A program made the translations under genes and the position numbers. Source: Escherichia phage nepoznato. From it: a stretch of DNA of 64,000 nucleotides. The stretch lies in sequence record NC_052658.1; one strand, given 5' to 3'. Shown one piece after another: positions 1 to 32,093 of the stretch (its first letter is position 1; each line of letters starts with the position of its first letter). Under the pieces are notes generated by a model. That model had not been told where the DNA came from, did not search any database, and saw only the letters and a program-made list of their open reading frames with translations.

Positions 1-225
1 CTCATGCCAACATAGCGACAAGGTGGGCCACTTGATTATAAATCACACAAACACTTATTTATCAATGGTTTGGCAACTTCATCATATGACGGAACATTGT
101 CAACTGATCCCGCTCATGACAAGCAGACTATTATTTATATGAGAATGATTATTATTTAAACGTTTATTAACATAAAAACTAAAATAAATCAAGATTATTC
201 TGATTTTATTTACGTTTAAGAGAAG

Positions 226-425
226 GTGCTCAACATCCTACCGGATCGCCGTTGGCAATCCTGCGGATATTTACGCCCCCATGATTAAGGTTTATCTCTT
301 TTCTTAGTGCTCAACATATCGCGTAGCGATAGTATTCGCCCCCGTGATATTTGCTCTTCTCTTAGTGCTCAACATTCCCGCCTGTGGCGGTAACATTTCG
401 CCCCCAAAATTATTGACTTTTATTC
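226..425. repeat. Three tandem direct repeats of about 60-70 bp, each with boxes GTGCTCAACAT and TTCGCCCCC flanking a variable short palindrome
   Basis: Copies start near 232, 312 and 364. Confidence 0.7.
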
Positions 426-779
426 TATTATGTGCATAGTGTGCAATGTATCGGAATGATGATAATCATCCTCCCATTGCCCCCATAATTATTGCCATGC
501 TAATTGTTTCCTTATGTAATTATCACAATGACTATTGTTATTGCGCTAATGTTATGATCTTGGTAATTACATATAATGCTAATAATAAGCCAGCGCAATA
601 AGTGTAAGCGTCATTACGCTTGCAATTATTGCAAGCTACGCAGTAACAAGAAATAACCATCACCGATGGTTATGATTGTTGGGGTGTAGTTGGCTTATTA
701 TTAGCTCGCTACGTGTCCGGCGTAGCGTGCTAATGATGAGTCTGTAAATGATTCATTGTGTAATGATTTCATTCAGGCA

Positions 780-1000
780 CTATTTTGCTAATAGTTATTA
801 TTTTAATGGTTTCGTTTGTTATTGTTCGTTAGTTGGTTGTTTTGTCGTGTTATCGTTATCTTGCTTAGTATTCATCATGGTTTGATTGTTTGTCGTTATC
901 AATCATCTTGCTATTATTCCTTTGATTATGATTAGTTTGCTTATTGTTTTATGTTGTTTGTTGGTTAGTTGTTGCGAACTATTATCAACATTATAATTAT
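780..1000. repeat. GT-rich low-complexity tract with strong strand compositional asymmetry
   Basis: Iterated GTT/TTG short motifs. Confidence 0.5.
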
Positions 1001-1249
1001 GCGCTTATATTGCATAGATAATCATGGGTAGATGATAATGGTTATCATTGCACTAGAAAGGAGGTAAAAGGGTGTTTTTGATGGTTTGTTGTTGGTTGTT
1101 GATCGATTTTAACCGCTCTAAATGGCTCTCTAACAGCCTGTAACCCTGGGAGGTATGGTTATTCGTTTGCTGGTTGATTAGCTCGATACCGCGATTTATT
1201 CAGTTTTGTTCTGTGTCGGTTTTTCATAGGCGGAAGCTATCAATATTGT

Positions 1250-1283
1250 TCGGGCAAAAATAAAGGGCGCTTAGTGCGCCCCT
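1250..1283 (-). terminator. Rho-independent terminator after leftward gene 1293-1661
   Basis: GGGCGC-loop-GCGCCC hairpin followed by T-run on minus strand. Confidence 0.6.
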
Positions 1284-1292
1284 TGTATAATC

Positions 1293-1661
1293 TTACTTTG
1301 TGCTGTTGTAAACGTTATCGCGTTCAACCATCACCGCAAGGCGGATCAGTTGATCAGTTGTATCGCGTAAATTGTCGGGCCATGTTTTACTGTTCCAGCT
1401 ATCCAGGTTTGATTGTATATAGGTTTCAATGGCTTGATCCATATTATCAAACAAGTTTTCCTCCAGGCTCTCGGCTGTTTCACACTGGAAAGCATTAGCG
1501 ACACTATTAATCAATAAGCAAGCCAGTAAATCAGCGTTGCGCCAATTTTTACGGATAGTTTCATCTGTCAGATAACCAACGAGATTAACCTTTGCGCCAG
1601 TGGTGGACGTTGCGATCACTTCTTGCGCTTTTTCAACTGCTTTAATTGCTGATTTGCTCAT
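1293..1661 (-). CDS. Hypothetical early protein (about 122 aa); start moved to internal Met
   Basis: Conserved leader element lies inside the ORF-track N-terminus; RBS AGAGGAAAAG before ATG at 1661. Confidence 0.55.
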   Translation of the reverse strand: MSKSAIKAVEKAQEVIATSTTGAKVNLVGYLTDETIRKNWRNADLLACLLINSVANAFQCETAESLEENLFDNMDQAIETYIQSNLDSWNSKTWPDNLRDTTDQLIRLAVMVERDNVYNSTK

Positions 1662-1690
1662 CTTCTTTTCCTCTTTGTGGGCTTGCTGTA

Positions 1691-1737
1691 TTGCTCGCCC
1701 TACGTGATAAATAATAATATAAGGGTGATCCCGTGTC
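1691..1737 (-). promoter_or_regulatory. Early promoter (TTGACA / TATTAT) plus conserved leader box
   Basis: Reverse complement reads TTGACA-N17-TATTAT-TTATCACGTAGGGCG. Confidence 0.55.
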
Positions 1738-1913
1738 AATAGGTAGAATTGTAAAGATTTGATAGTTTATCTCTTTGATGCTTTGTTGTTTGATAGATGT
1801 TAGCTATCAATATATAGCGGGGTCGTCCGGTGATTATCTTCCCTGTTTCCAGTGCCGCCCGTTCAATAAGCATAACAAAAAACAGGACAAAAACAAGCCC
1901 TGTTTTGTAAAGA

Positions 1914-2147
1914 TTAGATGATCTGCATATCTTCCACGATAATTTCTAATTTCCAAACAAGATGATCTAAGCTCCCTGATAAAAATGATTCCGATACATA
2001 ACCGCCATCGGACACCGTAGCAAGGATCTCGCCATTTGCTTGCTCTTTGATTTGAACATCCAGGCGGTTAGCCTTTGCTTTGTTCAGGACGGCGATCAGG
2101 CGGTTAGCTGTAGTCATGATGTTTCTCTCTTCTGTTGTGAGCGGCAC
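1914..2147 (-). CDS. Hypothetical early protein (77 aa)
   Basis: ORF with RBS; own promoter upstream. Confidence 0.6.
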   Translation of the reverse strand: MPLTTEERNIMTTANRLIAVLNKAKANRLDVQIKEQANGEILATVSDGGYVSESFLSGSLDHLVWKLEIIVEDMQII

Positions 2148-2198
2148 TATTGCCGCCCTACGTGATAAACTTTACTACCTGTTGCGCCTGCTGTCAAA
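2143..2198 (-). promoter_or_regulatory. Early promoter TTGACA-N-TAAAGT plus conserved leader stem-loop
   Basis: -35 near 2193-2198, -10 near 2169-2174, hairpin GGCGGCA/TGCCGCT. Confidence 0.6.
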
Positions 2199-2313
2199 CT
2201 ATTTTTTCTTTGCTTCCATTCGTCTAAGGTTACGGCTTGACTTGTTACGCAAGGCGCTCAAATCATCATAACCTTTAAAAGGTTGCATATTGTTCGGATT
2301 CATGCTACGCCCC

Positions 2314-2592
2314 TTAACGGTTATAAACGTCGTGAATAGTGATAAAGGCGCTACGACCATAAGCCGCCAAATCGGGATTGATCCAAGTGTTATCTAACAG
2401 TGTTTCAAGGACGATAGAATCATCATGAATAGCATCATAGAAATCAGGATGTATGATCGTTTCAATATCGTCCGGTGTTAGTTCCCAATTAAGGTTGCAA
2501 ACCGCTAAAACGTCTACCAATAACTTCCAATCTTGCAAATTAGTGGTTAATACTGTTTTCATTTCTTCGGTAGTGAGTTTAACGATGGTCAT
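2314..2592 (-). CDS. Hypothetical early protein (92 aa)
   Basis: ORF; promoter TTGCAA-N-TATAAT upstream. Confidence 0.6.
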   Translation of the reverse strand: MTIVKLTTEEMKTVLTTNLQDWKLLVDVLAVCNLNWELTPDDIETIIHPDFYDAIHDDSIVLETLLDNTWINPDLAAYGRSAFITIHDVYNR

Positions 2593-2599
2593 GATATTT

Positions 2600-2680
2600 T
2601 CTCTTTTTGATGAGGCGGAAAGTGTTCCCGCTCTCGATGTGAAACATTATACAACACTAAAAACTGATTGCAAGTGTTTT
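2600..2680 (-). promoter_or_regulatory. Early promoter (TTGCAA-N-TATAAT) plus leader stem-loop
   Basis: Direct reading of reverse complement. Confidence 0.6.
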
Positions 2681-2683
2681 TAA

Positions 2684-3013
2684 TTATCGCTTGCTATTCT
2701 CTTTCTCTACTTCCCCGATAGCATCGCAAAATTGATTGATAACATCAGGGTGAACGTCAATAGCGTCAAACAATCCGCTATTAGTTGCATTTTGTAAAGC
2801 AATAGACAATTCAGCCAGGGCGTTCAATTGTTTTACACGGAATTGATCGCGGATTGAATCCATATATTCCATCACTGCACTTTCCAGTGTTTCCCATGTA
2901 GTCGCTGCACCTTCGCCTACAGTTACATCCCACAAATTAGACTCGATTTGAGTCAGTACTACAGTTGGGCGACCAGCAACAACACTGCGGGCTAATTCGA
3001 TTTCATTAAACAT
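2684..3013 (-). CDS. Hypothetical early protein (109 aa)
   Basis: ORF; leader hairpin at about 3031-3050. Confidence 0.55.
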   Translation of the reverse strand: MFNEIELARSVVAGRPTVVLTQIESNLWDVTVGEGAATTWETLESAVMEYMDSIRDQFRVKQLNALAELSIALQNATNSGLFDAIDVHPDVINQFCDAIGEVEKENSKR

Positions 3014-3089
3014 TTTATTTTCCTCTTTGTGGGGAGAACTATTCTCCCCTTCATGTAAAACAGTCTACAGGTTTATTTCTCAATGTCAA

Positions 3090-3269
3090 CTATTTATTAT
3101 CGGGATTGTAAGCCAGGACCGCGCCACTTGCTTTCACCGCCCCAGCCTCATAGCTGCGTAAATCTTCCTCGGTGATATTCATTGCGATCACTTCCTCGAC
3201 CTCTACGCCAGTAGCAAGGGCGATCTCTTTGATGATATTTGATGTTTTGATAATGTCGATAGTTTTCAT
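3090..3269 (-). CDS. Hypothetical small protein (about 59 aa); start moved to MKTID
   Basis: RBS AAGGGG before ATG at 3269. Confidence 0.5.
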   Translation of the reverse strand: MKTIDIIKTSNIIKEIALATGVEVEEVIAMNITEEDLRSYEAGAVKASGAVLAYNPDNK

Positions 3270-3279
3270 AGTAAGCCCC

Positions 3280-3399
3280 TTACAGAAGAATAGCCGCGAT
3301 GGTTGAAATGAAAGCAATAACAGCGACGATGATCATCATGTTTTTACCTTCGGTTACTGCTACGTTTTCGGTGCTGTATTCTACGGTATATTTGCTCAT
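3280..3399 (-). CDS. Small hydrophobic (transmembrane) peptide, about 39 aa
   Basis: RBS GAGGG; hydrophobic C-terminus MMIIVAVIAFISTIAAILL. Confidence 0.45.
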   Translation of the reverse strand: MSKYTVEYSTENVAVTEGKNMMIIVAVIAFISTIAAILL

Positions 3400-3488
3400 C
3401 TTTCTACCCTCGTTTGTGGTTGGCTGTTGTCGCCGCCCTATGTATTTAATATACACTACCACGGCAGCATTGCAAGTTTATTTTGCAA

Positions 3489-3779
3489 TTATTTTTCTTC
3501 TGTAAAAAGCCCATCATTAACAACGGCGGCGATGATTTCACGGGCCATTGATTCGGGAAACGGTAGGCTATAATCCTGGCTTGTTTCATCTTCGCAAGAT
3601 ACCCAATGATAAGCTAATGAATAATACCCCTTAGAAACGGTTTTCAGGCTAACAATGATCACGGTGTTTTGTTCGTTGGTAAACGTCGCCGTGATGGTCT
3701 GGTCGTTTTGCACCATATCCATCAAACGGGCGTTATCATTTACCAGGGAAAACATTAGCACGGTGTTAGCTTTACTCAT
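3489..3779 (-). CDS. Hypothetical early protein (about 96 aa)
   Basis: Start set at MSKAN after the leader hairpin. Confidence 0.55.
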   Translation of the reverse strand: MSKANTVLMFSLVNDNARLMDMVQNDQTITATFTNEQNTVIIVSLKTVSKGYYSLAYHWVSCEDETSQDYSLPFPESMAREIIAAVVNDGLFTEEK

Positions 3780-3850
3780 GATTGCATCCTCAAAGGGGCG
3801 CGGCACCATTGCCGCCCTACACGATAACTATAACACAATGTAAAACAGGA

Positions 3851-4057
3851 TCAACCTTTATTTTTCCACGGTGTCAGCTTGTTAATCATTGGTGATAAAT
3901 AGCGTTTACCAACGTAAAACAGTACGCCAACTGATGCAACGGCGGCGACCTCATGCATAGCCGACGGGAAACGGGTATCATAATAAGATCCAATAATAGC
4001 GATAGCGGCAACGGCTGCAACGTCGATAATGATTTTTTCTTGTTTTGCGGTGATCAT
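3851..4057 (-). CDS. Small membrane protein (68 aa)
   Basis: Two hydrophobic segments. Confidence 0.55.
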   Translation of the reverse strand: MITAKQEKIIIDVAAVAAIAIIGSYYDTRFPSAMHEVAAVASVGVLFYVGKRYLSPMINKLTPWKNKG

Positions 4058-4142
4058 AATATTTACCTTTTTGTATGGTGGGGAACTATTCCCCGCCTGA
4101 TGTAATACAGTTTAACAGGTCCGGTTATGGTGTCAACCGTTT

Positions 4143-4328
4143 TTAAAGATATTTTATGCTAATAACGTTTTCCGGTTTAACCTTGTTATAATGTGCATCA
4201 ACATAGATCAAACCATCGTCAGAAAAGCCCAGGATCACGCCCTGCGCAATAAAACCGTATTCGTCACGGTAACGCACGGCTATTTTTAATGTTGCGCTGT
4301 ACGCTGTTTTAAGCTCGTTTAAAGTCAT
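4143..4328 (-). CDS. Hypothetical small protein (61 aa)
   Basis: ORF with RBS GAGGATAAA. Confidence 0.55.
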   Translation of the reverse strand: MTLNELKTAYSATLKIAVRYRDEYGFIAQGVILGFSDDGLIYVDAHYNKVKPENVISIKYL

Positions 4329-4348
4329 TTTTGTTTATCCTCTACATG

Positions 4349-4377
4349 TAAAAAGAAAGGGCGCTTGGTGCGCCCTT
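4349..4377 (-). terminator. Hairpin GGGCGC-TTGGT-GCGCCC with T-run (terminator or processing element)
   Basis: Close copy of the hairpin at 1262-1283. Confidence 0.45.
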
Positions 4378-4383
4378 GTTATG

Positions 4384-4530
4384 TTAATCCTCTAAATCCA
4401 TCCAATTATATTTGTCACTCTTCCCGCGCTTTGTTTTATTACGCTTGTCGCCTTTGCGGATCACTTCCTCGTTCCAGGCCTTGCGGATCTTGGAAGATTG
4501 AATTTTTTCTGCGCGATTAGATGTATTCAT
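4384..4530 (-). CDS. Lys/Arg-rich small protein, about 48 aa, not in the ORF track
   Basis: ATG with RBS GAAGAGGAAA; fills the gap between a leader element and the terminator. Confidence 0.45.
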   Translation of the reverse strand: MNTSNRAEKIQSSKIRKAWNEEVIRKGDKRNKTKRGKSDKYNWMDLED

Positions 4531-4609
4531 TTTGTTTCCTCTTCATATGAGCGGCACCATTGCCGCTATATTGTTAATTTAAACTGTTTTGTAAAATTGT
4601 CAAGGTTTA

Positions 4610-4960
4610 TCATTCATAAGAGCAAGCAAGGATCACGCCTGCAATATAAAGCCAATAATTTTCCCTTTCTCGTTGGATTTTATCATCGCGGCTATTCTCT
4701 TTAATGTATCCCCAGGATGTTAACAGGCGATCAATTTCCCAATATTCGAAAGCGATATTGATATCTGATGGCAAACCTTGTAACCAACTTGCCAGGGCGC
4801 GGACTATTGATCCGTTATATCGTTTTTGATTATCAGGGTACCAGTACTCTGATTCAAAGCGGCGCATCAGTTCGGCTATCTTCTCTTTTTCGCCAGTGAT
4901 GCCATAGTCGATTGATGCTAGGATGTAACCTTTAATTTCGTTTTGTGCTTTCATGGTCAA
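4610..4960 (-). CDS. Hypothetical early protein (116 aa)
   Basis: ORF in promoter-led array. Confidence 0.6.
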   Translation of the reverse strand: MTMKAQNEIKGYILASIDYGITGEKEKIAELMRRFESEYWYPDNQKRYNGSIVRALASWLQGLPSDINIAFEYWEIDRLLTSWGYIKENSRDDKIQRERENYWLYIAGVILACSYE

Positions 4961-4966
4961 TCTCTC

Positions 4967-5188
4967 TTATTTACTTACAACCAGTTGATAACCGTTTTCT
5001 ACATTGCTAAACACTGTTAGCCCGTCGTCGCGCTCACTCATCAACAAGCAAGGCGATAACATGCGTTCGGCAGCTTTACACTCATTATAAGCGGCAGTGA
5101 TGTCTCCTGCTGCCTTGTCTTCTGTAGTAAATGTCTCGTTTACGTAAACCTGACCAGCAACAACGGCGACAATAGCAAAAGTAATCAT
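4967..5188 (-). CDS. Hypothetical early protein (73 aa)
   Basis: ORF; TTGACT-N-TATAAT promoter at about 5231-5262. Confidence 0.55.
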   Translation of the reverse strand: MITFAIVAVVAGQVYVNETFTTEDKAAGDITAAYNECKAAERMLSPCLLMSERDDGLTVFSNVENGYQLVVSK

Positions 5189-5262
5189 GATGTTTCCTTG
5201 TTAATAGTGGTTTCTCTTCTCTATAGCGCCCATTATAAAGCGCTATAACGAAAAGTCAACGA

Positions 5263-5430
5263 TTATTTTTTAAGGCTTAAAGTACCTAACTTGTCAGCAT
5301 GACGCAGACCAGGGAAGATCCATTTGCCTGATTCATCTTTTACCGGAGCTTTAAGCGTAGCGCCCAGGTTGGCGGCGTTAACTTTACGTGCAACGTTGCG
5401 AGCGGCTTCACGGGTAGCGCAAGTGATCAT
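5263..5430 (-). CDS. Hypothetical small protein, about 55 aa, not in the ORF track
   Basis: ATG downstream of leader hairpin 5457-5477. Confidence 0.45.
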   Translation of the reverse strand: MITCATREAARNVARKVNAANLGATLKAPVKDESGKWIFPGLRHADKLGTLSLKK

Positions 5431-5526
5431 GATGTTTTCCTCTTCTCTTTGTTAGGCGGTGGACCATTCCGCCGCCTTGATGTAATACAGTTTACTCTTT
5501 TTCTTTCCGGTGTCAACAATCTTTTT

Positions 5527-5754
5527 TCAGATTAATTCATCCAGGCATAACAGGCGATCAACGTTGAGATCGGTTAGGCTGATGGTTGGCACCTGGTAGG
5601 ATTCGATGTACTCAACGCTCGACCATTGCCCGAAGTTAGCGACCGCCCAGCTATTCAAGGAAGAGTGAAGATCATCCCCTTTCTTCTCGGTGATAACTGC
5701 TACTACCTGGGAAGTGCCAACGGTGCCGGATACGCGAACAATATTGATAGCCAT
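5527..5754 (-). CDS. Hypothetical early protein (75 aa)
   Basis: ORF with own promoter. Confidence 0.6.
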   Translation of the reverse strand: MAINIVRVSGTVGTSQVVAVITEKKGDDLHSSLNSWAVANFGQWSSVEYIESYQVPTISLTDLNVDRLLCLDELI

Positions 5755-5769
5755 GATTTTTCTCTCTTC

Positions 5770-5834
5770 TGTTAGGCGGGGCGCTTGTCGCCCCTATGTG
5801 ATACATCTTACACTAATTTTAAACGTTGTCAAAT
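5770..5834 (-). promoter_or_regulatory. Early promoter plus leader stem-loop (GGCGGGGCG/CGCCCC stem)
   Basis: TTGACA near 5829-5834; hairpin 5772-5790. Confidence 0.55.
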
Positions 5835-5927
5835 TATTTTCTATTTCTTCCGTAATAGCCCAATTTATGATCTAAGCTAAAACGTTTTGTTAGATAGGTA
5901 GAACGATGTTTCATTTTTATATCTCCT

Positions 5928-6167
5928 TTACATTCCAACCATCGCGGCGCGGATCGCTGTAGTGCTATACTTGAAACCGTCTGGAGTTTTATCTTGTCCA
6001 GTTTGTTCCAGGAATAACATCATATCACGGGCAGCATCATTACGATTAGTATTAGCGGCGATAAATTCTTTCGCCAACCGATATAACGATTCATCGTTAT
6101 TAATCCAAAGGCTTACATTCCAATGAGTTTTATTTTTGTGACCTAAGAACATTTTTGATTTAGCCAT
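5928..6167 (-). CDS. Hypothetical early protein (79 aa)
   Basis: ORF; leader element 6188-6225. Confidence 0.6.
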   Translation of the reverse strand: MAKSKMFLGHKNKTHWNVSLWINNDESLYRLAKEFIAANTNRNDAARDMMLFLEQTGQDKTPDGFKYSTTAIRAAMVGM

Positions 6168-6257
6168 GATGTTAATCTCTTTTTTCAGTGAGGCGGGAAG
6201 TGTTCCCGCTCTCTATGTAATACAGTTTACTCTTTTTATTCGTGCTGTCAATGCTTT

Positions 6258-6623
6258 TTATAAATCTTTTTTACGTTTAACATCGCTCGCATGACTGTAT
6301 ACAGTGATCCCATTATCACGGCAAAAACGGGAAAGATACGCGCCGCGTGAAAACTCTTTACCTTCCATATTAATAACCTTGCTAAATTCTTCCAGGGCGA
6401 CGGTATCAAAATGATCACCATAACCATATTGAAACGGAACGTTAACCACCTCGATCAGTTTACCGCCGATCTCAACGTCAACCATTAAAGAAAAATATGT
6501 ATTACCGTAGGACTGTTGAAACCAACGACGGGCGCTAATATGCACCGCCTCAATGCTGGATAGTTCAATTTTAGCCGTGTCAGCCAGGGTAGCATAAGAG
6601 GAAACATTAATATTAATAGCCAT
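6258..6623 (-). CDS. Hypothetical early protein (121 aa)
   Basis: ORF with own promoter. Confidence 0.6.
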   Translation of the reverse strand: MAININVSSYATLADTAKIELSSIEAVHISARRWFQQSYGNTYFSLMVDVEIGGKLIEVVNVPFQYGYGDHFDTVALEEFSKVINMEGKEFSRGAYLSRFCRDNGITVYSHASDVKRKKDL

Positions 6624-6641
6624 GATGATAACCTTTTTATT

Positions 6642-6701
6642 GTTGGCGGCACCATTGCCGCCCTACGTGATAAACTATAACAGAATTTTAAACAATGTCA
6701 A
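6642..6701 (-). promoter_or_regulatory. Early promoter (TTGACA-N17-TATAGT) plus conserved leader TTATCACGTAGGGCGGCAATGGTGCCGCC
   Basis: -35 at 6696-6701, -10 at 6674-6679. Confidence 0.65.
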
Positions 6702-6711
6702 ACGTTTTTTC

Positions 6712-6957
6712 TTAGTTTGCGAAATATGGCGCGGCGGCTGATGCCGTTAAGCTCCAAGTGATTTGACTATCGATCAAGTATTCTTCATTCTTGATCCGCA
6801 CGGTATCAATCGAGAAGTTACTAAAAGGTTTACTTTTAATTTTACGAACAACCGTTACACGACGGTTATTTTTCATCTCTTTTAACTGAATCCAGGCGAA
6901 ACCTTTTTCATTAACGAAAATTTCATTGTGGTTAGTGATAGATGATAAGTGTTTCAT
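6712..6957 (-). CDS. Hypothetical early protein (about 81 aa); start moved to MKHLSS
   Basis: ORF-track N-terminus (MYHVGR...) is a read-through of the leader element. Confidence 0.55.
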   Translation of the reverse strand: MKHLSSITNHNEIFVNEKGFAWIQLKEMKNNRRVTVVRKIKSKPFSNFSIDTVRIKNEEYLIDSQITWSLTASAAAPYFAN

Positions 6958-7049
6958 GATTTTTCTCTCTTCTGTTTTGAGCGGTGGACCATTCCGCCGC
7001 CCTACGTGATACATATTACTACTTTTTCAAACGTTGTCAACAATCTTTT

Positions 7050-7331
7050 TCAACTATATGATCCGCACCGTTCGCAATAGTGATCTTCTTCCTCTTCCAC
7101 TACTTGACCGACAAAATGATCAACCTTTGATTTCAGGCTTTTATAATTACTTTCTACTTCCTGTAGTCGTCGTTGGTAGTATTCCAGGGCTTGCACATAT
7201 GCCGCTTGTTCTGTTTTAGCTTGCATCGCTAAATTCATGCCGCGCGTGTCATCATACAACCAATAACCATCATTGCATTCACTGATTGACAGTGTGGGGC
7301 TTAGTTTTTCGTGACGGATAACCTTGCTCAT
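7050..7331 (-). CDS. Hypothetical early protein (about 93 aa), C-terminal CxxC
   Basis: Start set at MSKVIRHEK. Confidence 0.5.
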   Translation of the reverse strand: MSKVIRHEKLSPTLSISECNDGYWLYDDTRGMNLAMQAKTEQAAYVQALEYYQRRLQEVESNYKSLKSKVDHFVGQVVEEEEDHYCERCGSYS

Positions 7332-7341
7332 AGTGTGCGCC

Positions 7342-7446
7342 TTATAGAATGATTGAAACAACAATTGCTACAGTGATCCACACTGGAACGGCTAACAAAA
7401 TAGCGTTAATCGTTCCAACCGTCAAGCTATTTCCTTTATTAATCAT
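7342..7446 (-). CDS. 34-aa hydrophobic peptide MINKGNSLTVGTINAILLAVPVWITVAIVVSIIL, not in the ORF track
   Basis: ATG after RBS AGAGG, directly downstream of a promoter/leader. Confidence 0.4.
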   Translation of the reverse strand: MINKGNSLTVGTINAILLAVPVWITVAIVVSIIL

Positions 7447-7469
7447 TGTAAGCCTCTTGCATAATTTCA

Positions 7470-7532
7470 CTATGAGCGGCACCATTGCCGCCCTACGTGG
7501 TAAATATTATGCCAGTGGCGGCGATATGTCAA
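7470..7532 (-). promoter_or_regulatory. Early promoter (TTGACA-N17-TAATAT) plus leader stem-loop
   Basis: -35 at 7527-7532, -10 at 7504-7509. Confidence 0.65.
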
Positions 7533-8095
7533 AGACTATTTTCAAAGTTTTCTAGGGCGATCCTTTTTTCTTCCTCTGTCGGCTGATAATCAGGAAAAGC
7601 ATCAGCACACAACAACGGCGGGATCTCTTCGTACTCTTCCTCTTCCGTTGTCTCCTCGTCTTCCTCCTGGGCTATGGCTGCAATTTTGGCTAATTTTCTT
7701 TCAGCTTGAATCAATTTACCATCAAGTACGTTTTTTGCCATGTTGTAAGCGGTCCAGGTGATGCGCTTACTTTCCAGGGCCTGATCGAGCGCCGCTATCT
7801 TGCTGGGGTATTCATCCAGGACACGAAAAGCCGGATCAACTTTGTACAAAGGATTATCTTTCGCGCCGTCGCTCGCATCTTCCGCACTGGATAAATCAGC
7901 GTTACCATTTGCCAGCCAGCCAGGGCGCACATAACGCGCTTTTATGTTGCCGTTACTACGTGCTAACCTGTTACCTATTTGCTCACCGCTATATCCCGTG
8001 GATTCATCGATAAGATGATCGGGAATGATGCGCGGATCATCTGCTTCATGTTTTACCCAAGACTGGATCACATATTCGCGGCCCATATTAACCAC
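7529..8095 (-). CDS. Hypothetical protein (188 aa) with acidic C-terminal tract
   Basis: ORF. Confidence 0.55.
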   Translation of the reverse strand: MVNMGREYVIQSWVKHEADDPRIIPDHLIDESTGYSGEQIGNRLARSNGNIKARYVRPGWLANGNADLSSAEDASDGAKDNPLYKVDPAFRVLDEYPSKIAALDQALESKRITWTAYNMAKNVLDGKLIQAERKLAKIAAIAQEEDEETTEEEEYEEIPPLLCADAFPDYQPTEEEKRIALENFENSL

Positions 8096-8345
8096 CTTTT
8101 TTCAACAATCGGCATACTTTAAAAAGACTTGCTGAATCCTTGCAAGGGTAGAAAGATGTACGATAATCACGTACGCCAACCTTGCGGATCTCGATGTTTT
8201 CGCATGTTGTTTGATCAAAGATATTTATTTCATCACGCCCCCTTATATAAACATAGTGGGGATGTATTAACGCATATTTTGCTAATCTGTAAAAAGCGTT
8301 ATCTTTGAACGCGATCACGTGACCTTTTAATTTGATGTAAAACAT
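8088..8345 (-). CDS. Hypothetical protein (85 aa)
   Basis: ORF; leader element 8355-8385. Confidence 0.55.
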   Translation of the reverse strand: MFYIKLKGHVIAFKDNAFYRLAKYALIHPHYVYIRGRDEINIFDQTTCENIEIRKVGVRDYRTSFYPCKDSASLFKVCRLLKKGG

Positions 8346-8421
8346 TCTACCACCTTACAAATAGCGGGAACTATTCCCGCTTTATGTAACATATTAACAA
8401 ATTAGTCGTTAATGTCAAGCC

Positions 8422-8694
8422 TTAAAGCAAAAACGCTACATCTTGCGCTTTTAATGTAGTGTCAACCATTTTTGGGCTTTTATAATCAACAAAACGCGCG
8501 GTTTTTTCAATAGCAAAACCGAGATAATCTTGTTTATTGAATTTACATTCTTTCTTAAATGTTTCCCGCGCCACGGTGATCGCTGCGTCCAGGGATAAAC
8601 GCCCGTCAATGTTGATATTTGCGAAAGATCCGCCACCGCTCATAGGTTTACCAGTGGTGCCAGCTACGATCATTGTTGCGCTATATGATGCCAT
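8422..8694 (-). CDS. Hypothetical protein (about 91 aa); start moved to MASYS
   Basis: ORF-track N-terminus spans the leader element. Confidence 0.55.
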   Translation of the reverse strand: MASYSATMIVAGTTGKPMSGGGSFANINIDGRLSLDAAITVARETFKKECKFNKQDYLGFAIEKTARFVDYKSPKMVDTTLKAQDVAFLL

Positions 8695-8786
8695 GATTAT
8701 AATCTCTCTTCTGTTGTGAGCGGCTGAACCATTCCGCCGCCCTATGTGATACATCTTATCAGGTTGTTGGTTGTTGTCAATACTTT

Positions 8787-8984
8787 TTATTCTATTCCTG
8801 CAATCTGATTAACGCGTTTGCATTTTGTAGCGTGCTGGTCTTCTGTAATTACTCCCATTTCTAACAGTGAATCAATGAAAGATAAAACCGTTTCATGATC
8901 ATCCTGGGGATGACTGAACTCAGTAAAACCGTTTACTACCACGTTTATTTGTCCAGCTTTCGCCACAATGTGCAATGTTGCCAT
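8787..8984 (-). CDS. Hypothetical protein (about 66 aa); start moved to MATLH
   Basis: RBS GGAG before ATG at 8984. Confidence 0.5.
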   Translation of the reverse strand: MATLHIVAKAGQINVVVNGFTEFSHPQDDHETVLSFIDSLLEMGVITEDQHATKCKRVNQIAGIE

Positions 8985-8996
8985 GATTTTAACTCC

Positions 8997-9060
8997 AAAT
9001 AATGAGCGGCACCATTGCCGCCCTACGTGGTAAATATTATGCCGCCACCTGGCGAACGTC
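8997..9060 (-). promoter_or_regulatory. Early promoter (TTGACG-N-TAATAT) plus leader stem-loop
   Basis: Near-identical to element at 7470-7532. Confidence 0.6.
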
Positions 9061-9171
9061 AATCACTTTTTCAATCTTTTTTATTTTCTTTTTGCTTGCT
9101 ATATATAAAAGAAAGGGCTATCATCTTTCTACCGCGCCAACCTGGGCGCACATCAAAGAAAGGGCGATACC

Positions 9172-9438
9172 ATGACAAATACTACATTACACCTTATGCA
9201 CTCATTGGGCTGGCAAGGCGGCACGGTGCACCAGGTAGCAAGCGCAACGGGCTTAAAGGTTGAAACCGTTCTCAACCTATCAGATTATAAGGTCGAGGAT
9301 AGTTATCAATTACAAAGTTACACGGGCGGTTTTACCTGGGCGCGTGAAGGTGGGAAAGAAAGCAATATACCACATTGGGGAAAAGGTGATATTCATTTTT
9401 GGCTAGGTGTCCTGACCTGGCAAGAAAACAAAAAATAA
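9172..9438 (+). CDS. Small helix-turn-helix protein, putative transcriptional regulator (88 aa)
   Basis: Segment GGTVHQVASATGLKVETVLNLS resembles an HTH. Confidence 0.45.
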   Translation: MTNTTLHLMHSLGWQGGTVHQVASATGLKVETVLNLSDYKVEDSYQLQSYTGGFTWAREGGKESNIPHWGKGDIHFWLGVLTWQENKK

Positions 9439-9442
9439 TCTT

Positions 9443-9471
9443 GACAAGCCCAGGGATCGGGCTTATACTGT
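9443..9471 (+). promoter_or_regulatory. TTGACA-N17-TATACT promoter whose spacer contains hairpin AAGCCC/GGGCTT; promoter versus weak terminator is ambiguous
   Basis: Direct reading. Confidence 0.4.
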
Positions 9472-9690
9472 TTTACATACAGAAGAGGAAGCGCCACCCC
9501 CACGGCGTAAAGGCGGGGCTAACATACCAGGGGCACTGGTTGGAAGGTTGATCGCCGGTAGGCTGGGCGCTATATATTTGTAAAGAAATGTAAAGATAAA
9601 ATAATCGCTTGCTTTCCTGGCTGGATCTGTTATTCTTATTACATGGCGAGGGGACACGGGAGCGCGAGACAAACACCGCCCCTGCGCGTC
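9472..9690 (+). ncRNA. Candidate structured non-coding RNA: GC-rich island with nested complementary segments and no plausible ORF
   Basis: Compositional outlier downstream of the promoter-like element. Confidence 0.25.
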
Positions 9691-9694
9691 ATTC

Positions 9695-9800
9695 TCTAAA
9701 TGAGAATGATTATCATTTACTTTATTAAATAAGAATCAATCTCATTTATAAACCTAAATGCGAATCATTATCATTTGCATTTCCACATGAGAACTCTTCT
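9695..9800. repeat. Four iterated palindromic sites of about 19 bp (AATGATTATCATT; ATGAGAA-CTC-TTCTCAT), Fur-box-like
   Basis: Direct reading; related motifs at 141-160, 455-475, 1014-1045. Confidence 0.5.
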
Positions 9801-9825
9801 CATTCCCATCTGCATAAATTTTTGT

Positions 9826-10030
9826 AAACTTTAAATTTTGCTTTTGTACTTTCATTTTTGTAAAAGCAAAAAAACTTTAAATACTGTGGGCGCGCAAAAT
9901 TTTTAAAATTTTCCTTGACTTTTGAGTTTTGTTTTGTATCTGACATTTTAAGATAATTTTCCTAAACTTTAAATTTTGGTTTTCAACTTTCACTTTTGTA
10001 AATTCTTAAAAAGTTTAAATAATTTGAGGG
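9826..10030. repeat. Two copies of a direct repeat of about 56 bp (AAACTTTAAATTTTG...TTTTGTAAA...TTTAAATA)
   Basis: Copies at about 9826-9885 and 9961-10018. Confidence 0.6.
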
Positions 10031-10162
10031 ATTTTTGAGATAATGGATAGTGGGAATTTGATATAACCTTTAATCTTATTAGTAGACCTTCAGGAACCCA
10101 CCTAGATCGAATCCTGGTGATGCAAACTGAAAAAGACAAGGGTTTGTATAGGACAAAATAAT

Positions 10163-10198
10163 AGGCTCTCTACGGTGCTGTAGGAGCCTTATTTCTGT
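10163..10198. terminator. Bidirectional hairpin terminator (AGGCTC...GAGCCT) with T-rich flanks on both strands
   Basis: Direct reading. Confidence 0.5.
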
Positions 10199-10244
10199 GC
10201 TACAAAGTGACACCTTTGTTCTAAAAATGAAAAAAGTTAAAATA

Positions 10245-10787
10245 TCACAAATATCGTCTTTGCGGTATTTTGTCTGGGAAAAGTATTTCGATCAGTTTGT
10301 TATGATATTTACCTAAAAGATTTTGCCCTTTCCAGTTGACCGGATTTAGCACCCCTGGTTCATACATCCCCATTCCAATTCCGTAAACCTTATCGTAGGG
10401 GCTTGCTTCAACAAACGTTTTGTATTGGTAAAGGTGTAAGTCTGCATACAAATCTGGATTCTGTACATATTTCAAGCATAAACCTCGCATAACAATACGC
10501 TCACGGTTCTCTTCCCATACGTTGTTATCAAAATCCGACACTGCCCTACCCATACGTTTGTAATAAGCTTGGATCTTCTCATCTTTCCGTATCAAACTAT
10601 GAGTCAGAATAGCCTGTGCAGTGTTGTGGTCATTAAAAAGCAAAGCTTTACGCCACATCATATATTGTTCGACACAATTAAATGTTTGATTGTAACCTGG
10701 TTCGGTTTCTGTAAAGGGTGCAATATACCAATTACTAAACACATCTTTATGTGAAAAGAAGAATACATAATCATCAGTTATTCGCAT
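10245..10787 (-). CDS. NADAR (YbiA-like, DUF1768) family protein
   Basis: Recalled YbiA blocks FSNF/FSNW, EHYFQAQKF-like, MGR, and LVEASP-D-WG-G-like C-terminal half. Confidence 0.8.
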   Translation of the reverse strand: MRITDDYVFFFSHKDVFSNWYIAPFTETEPGYNQTFNCVEQYMMWRKALLFNDHNTAQAILTHSLIRKDEKIQAYYKRMGRAVSDFDNNVWEENRERIVMRGLCLKYVQNPDLYADLHLYQYKTFVEASPYDKVYGIGMGMYEPGVLNPVNWKGQNLLGKYHNKLIEILFPDKIPQRRYL

Positions 10788-10998
10788 TTTTCATACTCTC
10801 CAAAATTTCACGTTGCCCTTTCTGATAGGCTTTCATCAGGACCACTTTAAGGTTTGTCTCCAAAAGATCTTCATTGTAGTTATACCGCTCCACAACATAT
10901 GTCAATTCATCATAAAGATCAAGAACGGGGTAGAATACAGGGTTATCTGCTAAACGTGCCATAGTTTCTCCTTTGTTAGTCCATCCACCAGTAGCCAT
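10774..10998 (-). CDS. Hypothetical protein (74 aa)
   Basis: ORF in overlapping operon. Confidence 0.5.
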   Translation of the reverse strand: MATGGWTNKGETMARLADNPVFYPVLDLYDELTYVVERYNYNEDLLETNLKVVLMKAYQKGQREILESMKNANN

Positions 10999-11341
10999 AA
11001 ACTGCGTCTGCGTCGATGAGTTTGTGTTTGTTGTTCCGCATGTAGTCTAAGATAAGTAGACGTTTATTGTATCTGGAGAGATTATGACCCTCTTTTCCGC
11101 CATAGTCAAAATATTTTGCAAGATCTTTACACTCAAACAAAATCAGTTCGGGAGTTTCTTCACACTGGTCTGTCTGGTACACTTGACGAATGATCATGTA
11201 TACATCATCGTCTTCCGCTAAATGCTCTACTGGTCCACATCCAGCAGGAACAAATTCATAGTCCCATCGGATCAGATGTTTCTCTACTGCTTCAAAGAAA
11301 TCCATCCTTTCGTTGCGCATAATTTGAACGTCAACTAACAT
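10976..11341 (-). CDS. Hypothetical protein (121 aa)
   Basis: ORF. Confidence 0.5.
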   Translation of the reverse strand: MLVDVQIMRNERMDFFEAVEKHLIRWDYEFVPAGCGPVEHLAEDDDVYMIIRQVYQTDQCEETPELILFECKDLAKYFDYGGKEGHNLSRYNKRLLILDYMRNNKHKLIDADAVYGYWWMD

Positions 11342-12519
11342 GTTTCCTCCTGTAATGTTCCACCATAAAGTTTATAAATGTTTTGTATTGATGCCATGCA
11401 AGATAACTCCGCTGTCTCTGTGTAGCCATCTGGCATAGCATATTTGCTCACTGCTTCCGTGTGAAGGACACGCTTACAACGCTTTTCTGCATCTTTGCAT
11501 TGCTTCACAGTAGGGAAGTGCCACACTTGGCCCTGTTTCATAGTAAACACATTACGACTATTTTGTTCTTTGATACGGCGATTACTATTATTAGCAATAC
11601 CAAACTTCAGTGCACAGATAATATCTTGCTCATCGTAAATATAATTAATGTAGGCTTGTTGTTGATTTTTGTTAGCACACTGCGGACAACCTTGTCCTAT
11701 GTTTAAAAGGTTGTTTGCAGTTCCTTTTTGTTCCCCATGACTCTTACATACATATTTAAACTTACCTATAGAAGATGGTTTGGTAATCCATCCTATCCAA
11801 ACATACCCTTTCTTTTCTATTTTCTTTCTTACTTTATACGTAATCTGTTCCGCTGTATACCTATAAGATGCAGAGCAACGGCAGGGTAAGTGTCCATATT
11901 TAAGATTGCTACGCGTCATATAAAACTTACCATCACATAGTCCAGCTTTAACATATTCATCATGAGAACAAACAGGACACTGAACCATCCATACCGGATC
12001 ACACCCTTTACGTTCCCCCGTGTTGGTGAAAATAGTGCCTTCCTTAAACTTCCCTGTAGAAAAGAAATCTGCAATATGTTGATCGTCGGGTATTGTTTGT
12101 GACCTCCTTGTGTTCTCATACCTACATATAAGACAACCACTGCCATGTTTAAAACTATCAAAACTACATGTATTCCATTCATGACCATACCTACAACGTA
12201 GCATCATTTTCGTACGCGCACCTTTAAACGGTTCTACGATACCTATGATGGTAATCCCCTTAGCTTCCGCTATTGGTTTACATTCAGTAAGGTATGTTTT
12301 TAAATCTTTAATTTGACCTGCACACATAGGACAACCACTACCACGTTTAAAACTGTTAATACTTGTAGTATCCCATTTATAACCACAATGACACAACAAA
12401 TCAAGTTTTGTATTAACCCCTTTCCATTCTCCCGTCCATCCTAAGATTTGGATTTGCTTACTCTCTGCTATGGGTTGACACTCTTCTTTATATTGTTCCC
12501 ATGATTTTGGTGCTGCCAT
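11335..12519 (-). CDS. Multi-zinc-ribbon protein with C-terminal T5orf172/GIY-YIG-like domain (putative DNA-binding/nuclease)
   Basis: At least four repeats of a Cys-containing module ending GSGCPxC; C-terminal YIYDEQ...KFGIANN. Confidence 0.5.
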   Translation of the reverse strand: MAAPKSWEQYKEECQPIAESKQIQILGWTGEWKGVNTKLDLLCHCGYKWDTTSINSFKRGSGCPMCAGQIKDLKTYLTECKPIAEAKGITIIGIVEPFKGARTKMMLRCRYGHEWNTCSFDSFKHGSGCLICRYENTRRSQTIPDDQHIADFFSTGKFKEGTIFTNTGERKGCDPVWMVQCPVCSHDEYVKAGLCDGKFYMTRSNLKYGHLPCRCSASYRYTAEQITYKVRKKIEKKGYVWIGWITKPSSIGKFKYVCKSHGEQKGTANNLLNIGQGCPQCANKNQQQAYINYIYDEQDIICALKFGIANNSNRRIKEQNSRNVFTMKQGQVWHFPTVKQCKDAEKRCKRVLHTEAVSKYAMPDGYTETAELSCMASIQNIYKLYGGTLQEETC

Positions 12520-16439: not shown

Positions 16440-16530
16440 TCTCTTGTTAATGTTCATACATGATACCTGAAAATAATTTCAGATCAAGTATTGACATACT
16501 TTTTAATCTTGTTAAGATCAACTCCTACCA
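16440..16530. promoter_or_regulatory. Divergent promoter region: TTGACA-N16-TAAGAT rightward, TTGATC-N16-TATCAT leftward
   Basis: Direct reading. Confidence 0.5.
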
Positions 16531-25843: not shown

Positions 25844-26574
25844 CTGCTCATGTAAAATCTGCCTAAACGGGGGAACTCTCAACAGAGACAATCCCGTGCT
25901 AAACGTAACAGAACTCCCAACACAGAAGAAGGGGGTACTGATATGAGAAAACAAATTCGTGATTTTGAAGGGTATGAAATTGACGAGCTTGGAAATGTTT
26001 ATTGTACCAGGTATAAGGATGAAAGAATCCTTCGCTCGTGGGAAGAAATAAACACAGGATACCAACTTGTCAGAATACGTAAAAACAAGAAAACTGTTTG
26101 CTTTCGGGTGCACAGACTTGTAGCTGAAGCGTTTTTACCCAATCCAGACAATTTACCTTATGTGAAGCATAAAGGTGACAATAGGAAAGACAACAGTGTA
26201 TACAATCTTGAGTGGGGATCTTGTCCAGACAACACGCAAGAGGGTTACGATAATAACTGTTATGCTTTCTACACAAGGTGTCACAGTGTAAAAGCTACTC
26301 ATAAGGCTACTGGTGAAGTTTTTTACTTTAAAAGTCTGAGATGTTGTGCTGACGCTTTAGGGTTGGACAGAAAAAGAATATCTGCAATCTTAAAACAAGG
26401 AGCACCAAATAATTATGATTATGAGTTCTGTTACGAAATGCCTAACGACTAGCTGTGATGAATGTAGCAGCGTAGGGTGTAAGCCTATGACACCCCAAAT
26501 GGTAGACATGCTTTAAGCATGAAGATATAGTCTGATCTGCATGGTGACATGCAGCAGCACGTAATGGTGCGGGA
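25844..26574 (+). mobile_element. Intervening element splitting nrdD, carrying a homing endonuclease gene; probable group I intron (splice sites not determined)
   Basis: Endonuclease ORF sits between the two nrdD halves. Confidence 0.5.
25943..26452 (+). CDS. HNH homing endonuclease
   Basis: YEIDELGNVY, VHRLVAEAF, KHKGDNRKDNSVYNLEW, C-terminal DNA-binding module. Confidence 0.8.
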   Translation: MRKQIRDFEGYEIDELGNVYCTRYKDERILRSWEEINTGYQLVRIRKNKKTVCFRVHRLVAEAFLPNPDNLPYVKHKGDNRKDNSVYNLEWGSCPDNTQEGYDNNCYAFYTRCHSVKATHKATGEVFYFKSLRCCADALGLDRKRISAILKQGAPNNYDYEFCYEMPND

Positions 26575-31039: not shown

Positions 31040-31100
31040 GTGTTGACATAGTTCTTAAAAAGAGTAAGATATATCACATGAAGCGGGGAATAGTTCCCCG
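31038..31100 (+). promoter_or_regulatory. Early-type promoter (TTGACA) plus conserved leader TATCACATGAAG and hairpin CGGGGAA-TAG-TTCCCCG, plus-strand copy
   Basis: Same architecture as the leftward early promoters. Confidence 0.55.
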
Positions 31101-31118
31101 CAAAGAGAGGAGAAAAGA

Positions 31119-32093
31119 ATGCAACTCGGTTTCCCAATTATTGATGTAGTTGTTTTAGTTGGTATTTTGGCATTGTCTATTGGTATCGATTTCTTTGGTC
31201 ATAAAGAGAATAAAGAAATTGGAATTAAATCTGCTTTGCTTTGGTCTATTTTTTGGATTGCTTTAGCTTTAGGATATTACGCATTCATTTGGGTAGAACA
31301 TGGTAAAGAGTTTGCCGCGCTTTTCCTAAGTGGCTATGTGTTGGAAAAGAGTCTTTCTGTAGATAACCTGATGGTGTTCATGGCAATTTTTGCAAGCTTT
31401 GGAATTAAGAGCACACATCTCCAACATAAGATTTTACTTTGGGGGATTGCAGGAGCCATTGTCTTCCGAGGTATTTTTGTTGCAGCAGGCACCGCTTTGT
31501 TTAACCTTCATTGGTCGGTACAAGTGTTGTTCGGTTTGATTGTAGCTTGGTCTGCCGTAGCTATCATCAAAGGTGGTGACGAAGAAGAGGATATTGATTA
31601 CTCTAAGCATTGGGCTGTTCGTTTAGTAGGTAAAGTTCTGCCTGTGCACAATGCACTGGATGGTGAAAAGTTCATTACCATTAAGAATGGTATTAAATAT
31701 GCAACTCCTGCTCTTCTTTGTGTGTTTGTTATTGAGCTTACAGATATTGTCTTCTCTTTTGATTCAGTTCCGGCTGTGATCGGTGTGACACAAGAACCTC
31801 TGCTGGTTTATTCTGCAATGCTGATGGCTGTTCTTGGTTTACGTGCGCTTTTCTTTGTGTTAAGTGTAGCTGTGAAATATCTGGTTCACTTAGAGAAAGC
31901 TGTTGCTGTGGTTCTGGTGTTTGTTGGTGTTAAACTTATGTATCACCCGTTCGGTGAAACACTTCATGCCAAGTGGTCATTCCTCCCGCATGATATTTCC
32001 CCTAACGTAAGTCTGATGATTGTTCTAGGCACATTAGCTCTTGGTGTTATTGCAAGCTTTATCTTCCCTGAAAAAGAAGAAGCTGCTGTTTAA
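31119..32093 (+). CDS. terC: TerC-family integral membrane protein
   Basis: EKSLSVDNLMVF and ELTDIVFSFDSVPA; multiple TM helices. Confidence 0.75.
   Translation: MQLGFPIIDVVVLVGILALSIGIDFFGHKENKEIGIKSALLWSIFWIALALGYYAFIWVEHGKEFAALFLSGYVLEKSLSVDNLMVFMAIFASFGIKSTHLQHKILLWGIAGAIVFRGIFVAAGTALFNLHWSVQVLFGLIVAWSAVAIIKGGDEEEDIDYSKHWAVRLVGKVLPVHNALDGEKFITIKNGIKYATPALLCVFVIELTDIVFSFDSVPAVIGVTQEPLLVYSAMLMAVLGLRALFFVLSVAVKYLVHLEKAVAVVLVFVGVKLMYHPFGETLHAKWSFLPHDISPNVSLMIVLGTLALGVIASFIFPEKEEAAV

Follow-up and report, generated by a model that had tools for sequence, protein, structure and literature searches.

Location and content of the gene array

The window analysed in this study is a stretch of 64,000 nucleotides (nt) of Escherichia phage nepoznato (NC_052658.1; G+C content 39.5%). 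The element in question is a cassette of about 85 nt, which is repeated on the minus strand between positions 1659 and 9062 and combines a sigma-70-type promoter, a conserved box at the predicted start site and a GC-rich hairpin in the leader. The surrounding region 1500-9300 is an array of small genes, all of which are oriented leftward. Seventeen of the 19 open reading frames (ORFs) scanned in the array matched PHROGs of unknown function, and two matched no family.

The region 1500-9300 is similar to about 200 E. coli myoviruses of the genera Phapecoctavirus and Justusliebigvirus (Stephanstirmvirinae). Phages SKA64 and tuntematon were the best matches, with about 90% identity split into 6-13 pieces. 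Judged by its sequence, the source lineage of the window is a Phapecoctavirus-like myovirus of the phAPEC8/phi92 group.

Anatomy and distribution of the cassettes

Reading of the minus strand from 1500 to 9300 together with promoter scoring revealed 18 near-consensus sigma-70 promoters, whose -35 hexamers start at 9062, 8780, 8418, 7532, 7040, 6701, 6251, 5832, 5516, 5259, 4603, 4136, 3854, 3475, 3089, 2673, 2197 and 1739. All 18 scored 9-11 of 12 points, and 14 of them reached 10 or 11. A stable leader hairpin follows in 16 of these copies, which bears out the first-pass annotation of the window with its approximately 17 repeated promoter-hairpin cassettes. The uniform spacer of 17 nt that had been assumed between the -35 and -10 hexamers was not found, as 13 copies have 16 nt and five have 17 nt.

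The order of the unit is an upstream stop codon in an A-tract, the sigma-70 promoter, the start-site box, the GC-rich hairpin, a leader with a Shine-Dalgarno (SD) sequence and the start codon. The A-tract lies just upstream of the -35 hexamer (columns -36 to -32 counted from the -10 end; 0.5-1.26 bits) and is UP-element-like; in several copies the stop codon of the upstream gene lies inside it, e.g. TGAAAAAAGATTGTTGACA. The box has the consensus form (T)TATYACRTAG. Its exact 13-mer TTATCACGTAGGG occurs three times, and with up to two mismatches it was found in nine copies in the array interval, all on the minus strand, and elsewhere in the window only at 43303 (plus strand). The conserved box described previously was thus recovered in these copies, whereas the other cassettes carry looser forms such as GTATTACATAG or GTTTTACATGA.

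The leader hairpins have a G-rich 5' arm, and the leaders fold with minimum free energies of -11 to -18 kcal/mol. The hairpin core begins 10-13 nt past the -10 hexamer, or 5-8 nt past it where flanking pairs lengthen the predicted stem. At copy 3475 the hairpin is weak (-7.7 kcal/mol), and at copy 5259 the leader is without a hairpin, an inverted repeat (CTATAGCGC/GCGCTATAG) lying over the -10 box instead. The leader is purine-rich (AGAAGAGAGA or AAGAGG) and by prediction without structure, the ATG follows 14-27 nt past the end of the hairpin, and the SD region is unpaired in the predicted folds of nearly every copy.

The combination of promoter and hairpin occurs far above chance. Within the 64 kb, each perfect hairpin of the GCGG..CCGC family is preceded at a short distance by a promoter with a score of 9 or more out of 12, whereas none of the remaining GC hairpins is associated with a promoter and many have A-rich and T-rich flanks of the terminator type. 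The previously noted plus-strand copy in front of terC was located at 31043-31121, and the gene behind it was confirmed as a member of the TerC family (Pfam PF03741, E=1.3e-40).

Cassettes are present in the window phage, tuntematon, SKA64, phAPEC8, phi92 and FV3, and occur once in PVP-SE1. A BLAST search with one cassette as query yielded 125 phage records, nearly all of them from Stephanstirmvirinae or Vequintavirinae. PVP-SE1, a Seunavirus, carries at least one recognisable copy; the one clear copy is found on the minus strand of NC_016071 with its -35 at locus position 26066 (TTGACA-16-TATGAT, ACATAG, GGCGGCA-ACGG-TGCCACC). Its presence there suggests that the element is older than the split between Vequintavirinae and Stephanstirmvirinae, or that it moved between them.

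Selection on the hairpin structure

The cassettes of the window were pooled with those of tuntematon, SKA64, phAPEC8, phi92 and FV3, which gave 59 distinct cassettes with 39 distinct hairpins. In 50 of the 59 the hairpin begins 10-12 nt past the -10 hexamer. Pairing was counted outward from the loop over the first seven stem positions, and the 3' arms were permuted among the hairpins (2000 permutations) as a control. In the 39 hairpins 6.64 of the 7 positions were paired, compared to 4.83 +/- 0.17 after permutation (permutation maximum 5.41). At several stem positions the type of pair switches between hairpins; position 2, for instance, is held by A-T, C-G or G-C, and positions 5 and 6 are each held by G-C or C-G. 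The inner stem and the loop are variable (18 loop sequences, many stems). Since the pairing exceeds that of permuted arms, the hairpin is under selection as a structure, which agrees with the view of the first-pass annotation that the stems vary and nevertheless stay paired. In the same cassettes the box columns hold 0.8-1.3 bits and the promoter spacer 0.05-0.5 bits; the box is informative and the pairing is kept while the spacer is randomised, so both box and pairing are constrained.

RNAalifold predicted no structure on a MAFFT alignment of 36 distinct leaders. This is explained by the alignment, which shifts the 3' arms of hairpins with unequal stem and loop lengths out of register, and therefore the loop-anchored pairing count with arm permutation was used in its place.

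Exchange of hairpin alleles and recombination

Cassettes at orthologous sites that agree in promoter spacer and ORF carry entirely different hairpins. The hairpin of the cassette at 8780, for example, is unlike those of its counterparts in tuntematon (16487) and SKA64 (13385). Between the cassette at 6701 and SKA64 11192 the inner stem alone differs, and between the cassette at 6251 and its tuntematon ortholog only the loop. Conversely, the hairpin allele of the cassette at 5832 stands before different downstream genes in other genomes, and the allele GGGGCGACAAGCGCCCC precedes three different downstream genes across the compared genomes. Among 13 orthologous pairs the mean identity was lowest in the hairpin (0.86), compared to 0.96 in the promoter, 0.92 in the leader and 0.91 in the ORF.

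According to these comparisons, what had been interpreted as compensatory change of the two arms is largely an en-bloc exchange among a repertoire of hairpin alleles. The stems do stay complementary, as had been stated, whereas the idea of independent compensatory mutations in both arms was not upheld. The diversity of perfectly paired alleles still demands selection for pairing, even though the events are few and non-independent.

That the cassettes serve as recombination substrates is well supported by the alignments. The long alignment blocks had 48 ends, 24 of which fall between the -35 hexamer and the ATG, although the cassettes make up only 19.7% of the interval (binomial p=2e-6, a value that is indicative only, since the ends are non-independent across related genomes). 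Several further block ends lie within 10 nt of a cassette. The breakpoints are scattered over promoter, hairpin and leader.

Relation to known systems

Promoter-early stem-loop (PeSL) cassettes have been described in the T4-like phages RB49/phi1, T4/PST and KVP40/nt-1 (Arbiol et al. 2010, PMC2839356; Comeau et al. 2014, PMC4122927). The likeness to the cassettes studied here is extensive: in both, a stop codon in an AT-rich tract, a sigma-70 early promoter, a stem-loop with a G-rich and a C-rich arm, an SD sequence and a start codon are arranged within about 100 nt, and the unit recurs in a plastic region, where it precedes small genes without a known function and where the junctions of indels and replacements that separate close relatives are associated with the units. 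The subclass with the stem-loop in the spacer (promoter 9441) and that with the stem-loop over the -10 box (copy 5259) are both present here as well. On the other hand, the cassettes here occur in Stephanstirmvirinae and Vequintavirinae and not in T4-like phages, and their hairpin takes one fixed position in the leader (17 of 19), whereas in RB49/phi1 it mostly lies between or over the hexamers and a stem-loop downstream of the -10 is a rare subclass. They also differ in the conserved start-site box before the hairpin, in the lack of a U-tract after it and in the swapping of hairpin alleles documented at orthologous sites. By their organisation the cassettes are PeSL-like and represent a variant carried by myoviruses of the phAPEC8/phi92/rV5 group. 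The first-pass annotation mentioned neither the PeSL cassettes, which are the closest known system, nor recombination and gene shuffling.

A second resemblance is that to the ompA and papA leaders, in which protective 5' stem-loops were reportedly found by Emory, Bouvet and Belasco in 1992 and by Bricker and Belasco in 1999 (both listed in the review PMC3997798). In these leaders, too, a stable hairpin near the mRNA 5' end (predicted in our case) is followed by an unstructured leader with the ribosome-binding site. They are, however, leaders of single genes with measured effects on the half-life, while the cassettes form a repeated mobile family, for which 5' end and stabilisation are predicted. 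Repeated hairpins between genes which are able to shape mRNA stability are also known as REP/BIME elements and as RNase III sites of phage T7. REP/BIME elements are repeated intercistronic palindromes, which serve as 3' barriers and have no link to promoters, and the early RNase III sites of T7 are irregular duplexes longer than 20 bp. With 6-10 bp, the stems in the cassettes are too short for RNase III, and a function as RNase III site was therefore rejected. The attC sites of integrons likewise flank gene cassettes and combine a conserved structure with a variable sequence; they are longer, contain extrahelical bases and lack promoter function, and they depend on a dedicated integrase, which recombines them at a fixed point. 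In contrast, the junctions observed here occur all along the cassette, which has no dedicated recombinase linked to it.

The repeat has been seen before under another label, because the record of phAPEC8 (NC_020079) annotates the 20-mer GTAGGGCGGCAATGGTGCCG, which comprises the end of the box and the hairpin, as 'putative promoter determined with PHIRE' (features at 556-575, 937-956, 1787-1806 and 3202-3221), right after a 'host dependent promoter'. Hairpin, hairpin variability and leader position are unannotated in this record, and the PHIRE label is probably a mislabel of the leader hairpin. The searchable literature on Phapecoctavirus, Justusliebigvirus and Vequintavirus contained promoter and terminator counts only and no description of this element.

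Position in the transcript and proposed role

The E. coli RNA polymerase usually starts about 7 nt past the -10 hexamer, with a pyrimidine at -1 and a purine at +1. In the cassettes, transcription should accordingly start at the conserved purine of the motif YAC-R-TAG, 7-8 nt past the -10. A start predicted from this promoter geometry leaves 0-5 unpaired nt before the stem in 16 of the 19 window copies, in line with the earlier suggestion that the element occupies the extreme 5' end of each transcript. A 5' stem-loop that stabilises an mRNA would be expected at about 0-4 unpaired nt from the end. Relative to the predicted start of the cassette itself, the hairpin is positioned downstream in 17 of the 19 window copies.

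If the host RNA polymerase initiates at this distance, the hairpin would be located 0-5 nt from the 5' end of the early mRNA. There it may hinder decay that depends on the 5' end, i.e. the action of RppH, the 5' sensor of RNase E and scanning by RNase E. It might also keep the ribosome-binding leader from pairing with whatever ORF sits downstream; such an insulation of the ribosome-binding site from the ORF would fit with the SD region, which the folds predict to be unpaired. Furthermore, the shared sequence of about 85 nt could provide portable homology for the recombinational shuffling of ORFs. Protection and insulation of the 5' end by the hairpin are plausible in view of what is known about RNase E: cleavage in vitro is more than 10-fold slower at a base-paired 5' end, and an accessible 5'-monophosphate end is cut much faster than a base-paired or triphosphate end (reviewed in PMC3997798). 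On read-through transcripts, a hairpin could also obstruct the scanning of RNase E (PMC11194081).

Taken together, the cassettes may be mobile expression cassettes of the PeSL type, whose leader hairpin protects or insulates the early mRNA and whose homology serves gene shuffling, and we give this combination about an even chance of being correct. Several observations weigh against it. Within the stems, 8 G.T pairs were counted in comparison to 6 C.A or A.C pairs, and one common hairpin allele retains a conserved C.A mismatch; as these counts are similar, wobble pairs do not tell which strand acts, and a role of the RNA on the sense strand is read from the position only. Because of the en-bloc swapping of alleles, the covariation is not made of independent events. 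In the variant units 5259 (repeat over the -10) and 9441 (repeat in the spacer) the hairpin lies outside the own transcript. The near-consensus sigma-70 promoters at 16491, 18577, 37767 and 45290 on the plus strand have short leaders of about 30-40 nt without a hairpin and lead directly into ribosome-binding sites of the GGAG type. Thus, the hairpin is no general requirement for early expression, and the phage possesses two classes of host-type promoters. Finally, the searchable literature on the three genera mentioned above contained no mapped 5' ends or transcriptomes.

Some further functions were considered for the hairpin itself. A canonical intrinsic terminator was rejected owing to the lack of a U-tract after the hairpin, sequestration of the SD sequence owing to the SD region predicted to be unpaired in nearly every copy, and a GGA loop motif of the CsrA type was discarded because it is missing from the commonest allele.

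Alternative explanations

In the original PeSL model the hairpin acts as a terminator or attenuator, which stops or damps transcription coming from the upstream cassette and leaves each gene mainly under the control of its own promoter. Such an effect was observed for one PeSL stem-loop of RB49, which cut the expression of a downstream lacZ about as much as rrnB T1 (Arbiol et al., PMC2839356); it would also suit the repeats at 5259 and 9441, which are contained only in read-through transcripts, and the fact that most gene gaps of the array are without other terminators. However, a terminator past the cassette's own predicted start would stop the own transcript too, and a strong one would defeat that promoter. 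In addition, the 10 nt past the hairpin contain at most one T in 43 of the 59 cassettes, only one of 18 window copies passed a terminator scan, and the array does contain true T-tract terminators at other places (4377-4357, 1906-1879, 1284-1262), so that we regard this explanation as unlikely. A similarly low probability is assigned to a regulator site, at which a phage or host protein would bind box and hairpin, either as RNA leader or as DNA of the start site, and switch the early genes together, e.g. at the transition from early to middle expression. Box and 5' arm (ACRTAG-GGCGG) are indeed more conserved than the promoter spacer, the element is confined to one gene class and missing from the other sigma-70 promoters of the phage, and it overlies the start site, where repressors act. 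But sequence-specific recognition beyond the box fits poorly with an inner stem and a loop that vary freely (18 loops) and with alleles that are interchangeable at one locus, and no candidate for the binding protein was found, the neighbouring ORFs all being of unknown function. It is also rather improbable that the inverted repeat acts at the DNA level only, as a recombination hot spot or structure-specific site extruded in single-stranded DNA and without a role in RNA. Breakpoints enriched in the cassettes, hairpin alleles swapped between conserved flanks (e.g. 6701 compared to SKA64 11192) and wobble pairs without strand asymmetry speak for this view, as does RB49, where one PeSL crossover has been placed inside the loop and mini-circles have been observed (PMC2839356). 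Nevertheless, the breakpoints are spread along the cassette, as homologous exchange predicts, and a DNA hot spot needs neither the tight offset from the -10 nor the constant orientation with the G-rich arm first.

The remaining explanations seem more doubtful still. The hairpin might be a functionless passenger of a promoter region that was duplicated and converted. Cassettes clearly spread and homogenise by recombination, but pairing was kept in 39 hairpins across Stephanstirmvirinae and Vequintavirinae while the spacer was randomised to 0.05-0.5 bits, and there is little probability in favour of this view. Equally little is granted to hairpins that function as structure-recognised exchange sites comparable to attC, with a structure-specific nuclease or recombinase that excises and inserts units of promoter, hairpin and ORF; scars or specificity determinants of this process would then be seen in the hypervariable inner stems, and the array would be a gene-cassette system of a phage. 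Alleles replaced with intact flanks, one allele before three genes and the missing strand bias of the wobble pairs speak for it, the junctions spread along the cassette and the lack of a linked recombinase against it. Least probable of all, with hardly any chance of being right, is a phage-specific promoter as implied by the GenBank label of the 20-mer in phAPEC8. A conserved 20-mer is repeated upstream of genes, but it immediately follows a near-consensus host promoter, it keeps its self-complementarity while its sequence changes, contrary to what is required of a promoter, and PHIRE detects repeated words only.

If the interpretation as PeSL-type expression cassettes holds, promoter-plus-hairpin 'plug-and-play' cassettes would extend from T4-like phages to the phAPEC8/phi92/rV5 group, and the cassettes suggest a general route by which small accessory genes are taken up, expressed and reshuffled in large lytic phages. 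Several papers on phages of this group assess their use in therapy or biocontrol, and the cassettes mark likely recombination points when such genomes are engineered or compared. The fixed position in the leader offers a clean test case for 5'-hairpin protection of the earliest phage mRNAs, and the unit of about 85 nt may serve as a compact natural expression part with a strong promoter, a 5' hairpin and an insulated ribosome-binding site. The database annotation of the hairpin as a promoter would be corrected as well.

Description of the individual cassettes

The following cassettes are all located on the minus strand and are given in the direction of transcription. Cassette 1 (8982..9062; TTGACG-17-TAATAT) has the box TTACCACGTAG and a hairpin at 9023-9004 (GGGCGGCA-ATGG-TGCCGCTC) in front of the ATG at 8984, which opens an ORF of 65 amino acids (phrog_23268). 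It is followed by cassette 2 (8692..8780; TTGACA-16-TAAGAT) with the box GTATCACATAG, a hairpin at 8742-8718 and the ATG at 8694 of an ORF of 90 amino acids. Two ORFs of 85 and 185 amino acids stand behind cassette 3 (8343..8418; TTGACA-16-TAATAT), whose hairpin lies at 8381-8363 (AGCGGGAA-TAG-TTCCCGCT) and whose ATG lies at 8345, and likewise ORFs of 34 and then 93 amino acids behind cassette 4 (7444..7532; TTGACA-17-TAATAT; hairpin 7493-7474, ATG 7446). Cassette 5 (6955..7040; TTGACA-16-TAATAT, ATG 6957) possesses the box GTATCACGTAG and a hairpin with a C.A mismatch at 7002-6979.

The exact 13-mer box is found in cassette 6 (6621..6701), which has a TG-extended promoter (TTGACA-16-TATAGT), a hairpin at 6662-6645 (GGCGGCA-ATGG-TGCCGCC) and the ATG at 6623. 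In cassette 7 (6165..6251; TTGACA-16-TAAACT, ATG 6167) the hairpin at 6213-6190 reads GAG-A-GCGGGAA-CAC-TTCCCGC-CTC, and in cassette 8 (5752..5832; TTGACA-16-TAAGAT, ATG 5754) it comprises GGGGCG-ACAAG-CGCCCC at 5794-5778. Cassette 9 (5428..5516; TTGACA-16-TAAACT) carries its hairpin at 5477-5454 and the ATG at 5430. Cassette 10 (5186..5259; TTGACT-16-TATAAT, ATG 5188) is the variant with the inverted repeat over the -10 box and no leader hairpin.

Downstream of the ORF of cassette 11 (4528..4603; TTGACA-16-TAAATT, hairpin 4571-4545, ATG 4530), the true terminator 4377-4357 is located. This GC hairpin (4357-4377) is symmetric and lies between an A-tract and a T-tract, which gives it the appearance of an intrinsic terminator working in both directions within the array; the gene next after it (4328-4143) has no recognisable promoter of its own. 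Cassette 12 (4055..4136; TTGACA-16-TAAACT, ATG 4057) has a hairpin with a C.A mismatch at 4097-4077 and a C-run whose length differs among the relatives.

The weak -35 hexamer TTGATC (TTGATC-16-TATAGT) occurs in cassette 13 (3777..3854), together with the box TATCGTGTAG, a hairpin at 3815-3800 and the ATG at 3779. Cassette 14 (3397..3475; TTGCAA-16-TATATT, ATG 3399) contains the box AAATACATAG and the degenerate hairpin mentioned above, and cassette 15 (3011..3089; TTGACA-16-TAGACT, ATG 3013) a hairpin at 3049-3031 (GGGGAGAA-TAG-TTCTCCCC). A G.U pair is part of the hairpin at 2635-2612 in cassette 16 (2590..2673; TTGCAA-16-TATAAT, ATG 2592). The last two members of the array both have the exact box: cassette 17 (2115..2197; TTGACA-17-TAAAGT) with a hairpin at 2161-2137 and the ATG at 2117, and cassette 18 (1659..1739; TTGACA-17-TATTAT) with an interrupted hairpin GGGC..GCCC at approximately 1700-1679 and the ATG at 1661.

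The plus-strand cassette (31043..31121) consists of TTGACA-16-TAAGAT, the box ATATCACATGA and a hairpin at 31083-31101 (GCGGGGAA-TAG-TTCCCCGC), followed by the ATG at 31119 of the gene of the TerC family. A related promoter (9441..9500, plus strand; TTGACA-17-TATACT) has the box GTTTTACATACAGAAGAGG and no leader hairpin, and it carries the inverted repeat AAGCCCAGGGATCGGGCTT in the spacer between -35 and -10.

Regions next to the array and the plus-strand cassette

Behind the strong plus-strand promoter at 9441, about 800 bp (9441-10245) are without a convincing ORF. A GC-rich stretch is followed there by AT-rich repeats, with three copies of a 29-nt period at 9696-9804 and direct repeats of 72 nt at 9817-9888 and 9955-10026. 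The RNA fold of 9476-9700 was no better than that of shuffled sequence (z=0.04), and the tuntematon record annotates a repeat_region at the counterpart of 9441-10245. This segment could be an origin or another regulatory region.

At the other end, downstream of the array and beyond the terminator 1284-1262, positions 1-1290 form an ORF-poor stretch, in which neither a tRNA nor an Rfam match was detected; a scan of 1-12000 with Rfam 15, which takes in the array, yielded no family for the cassettes either and only one sub-threshold chance match (RF03142, 20.3 bits compared to a gathering cutoff of 37.8 bits). Genes are not annotated in the stretches of tuntematon, SKA64 and phAPEC8 to which this region is about 96% identical; its identity to the non-coding DNA preceding the right terminal repeat of phi92 is 68-79%. 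The phi92 terminal repeat, which would show how far the array is from the end of the genome, was sought in the window, and the repeat itself was unmatched. The rV5 paper likewise draws a 'non-coding' box.

A gene with a NADAR domain (PF08719) is located at 10245-10787 on the minus strand. Near the plus-strand cassette, the segment 29490-32093 comprises accessory genes, namely a ComF-like phosphoribosyltransferase (PRTase; PF15610), a weak match to the Macro domain and TerC (PF03741).

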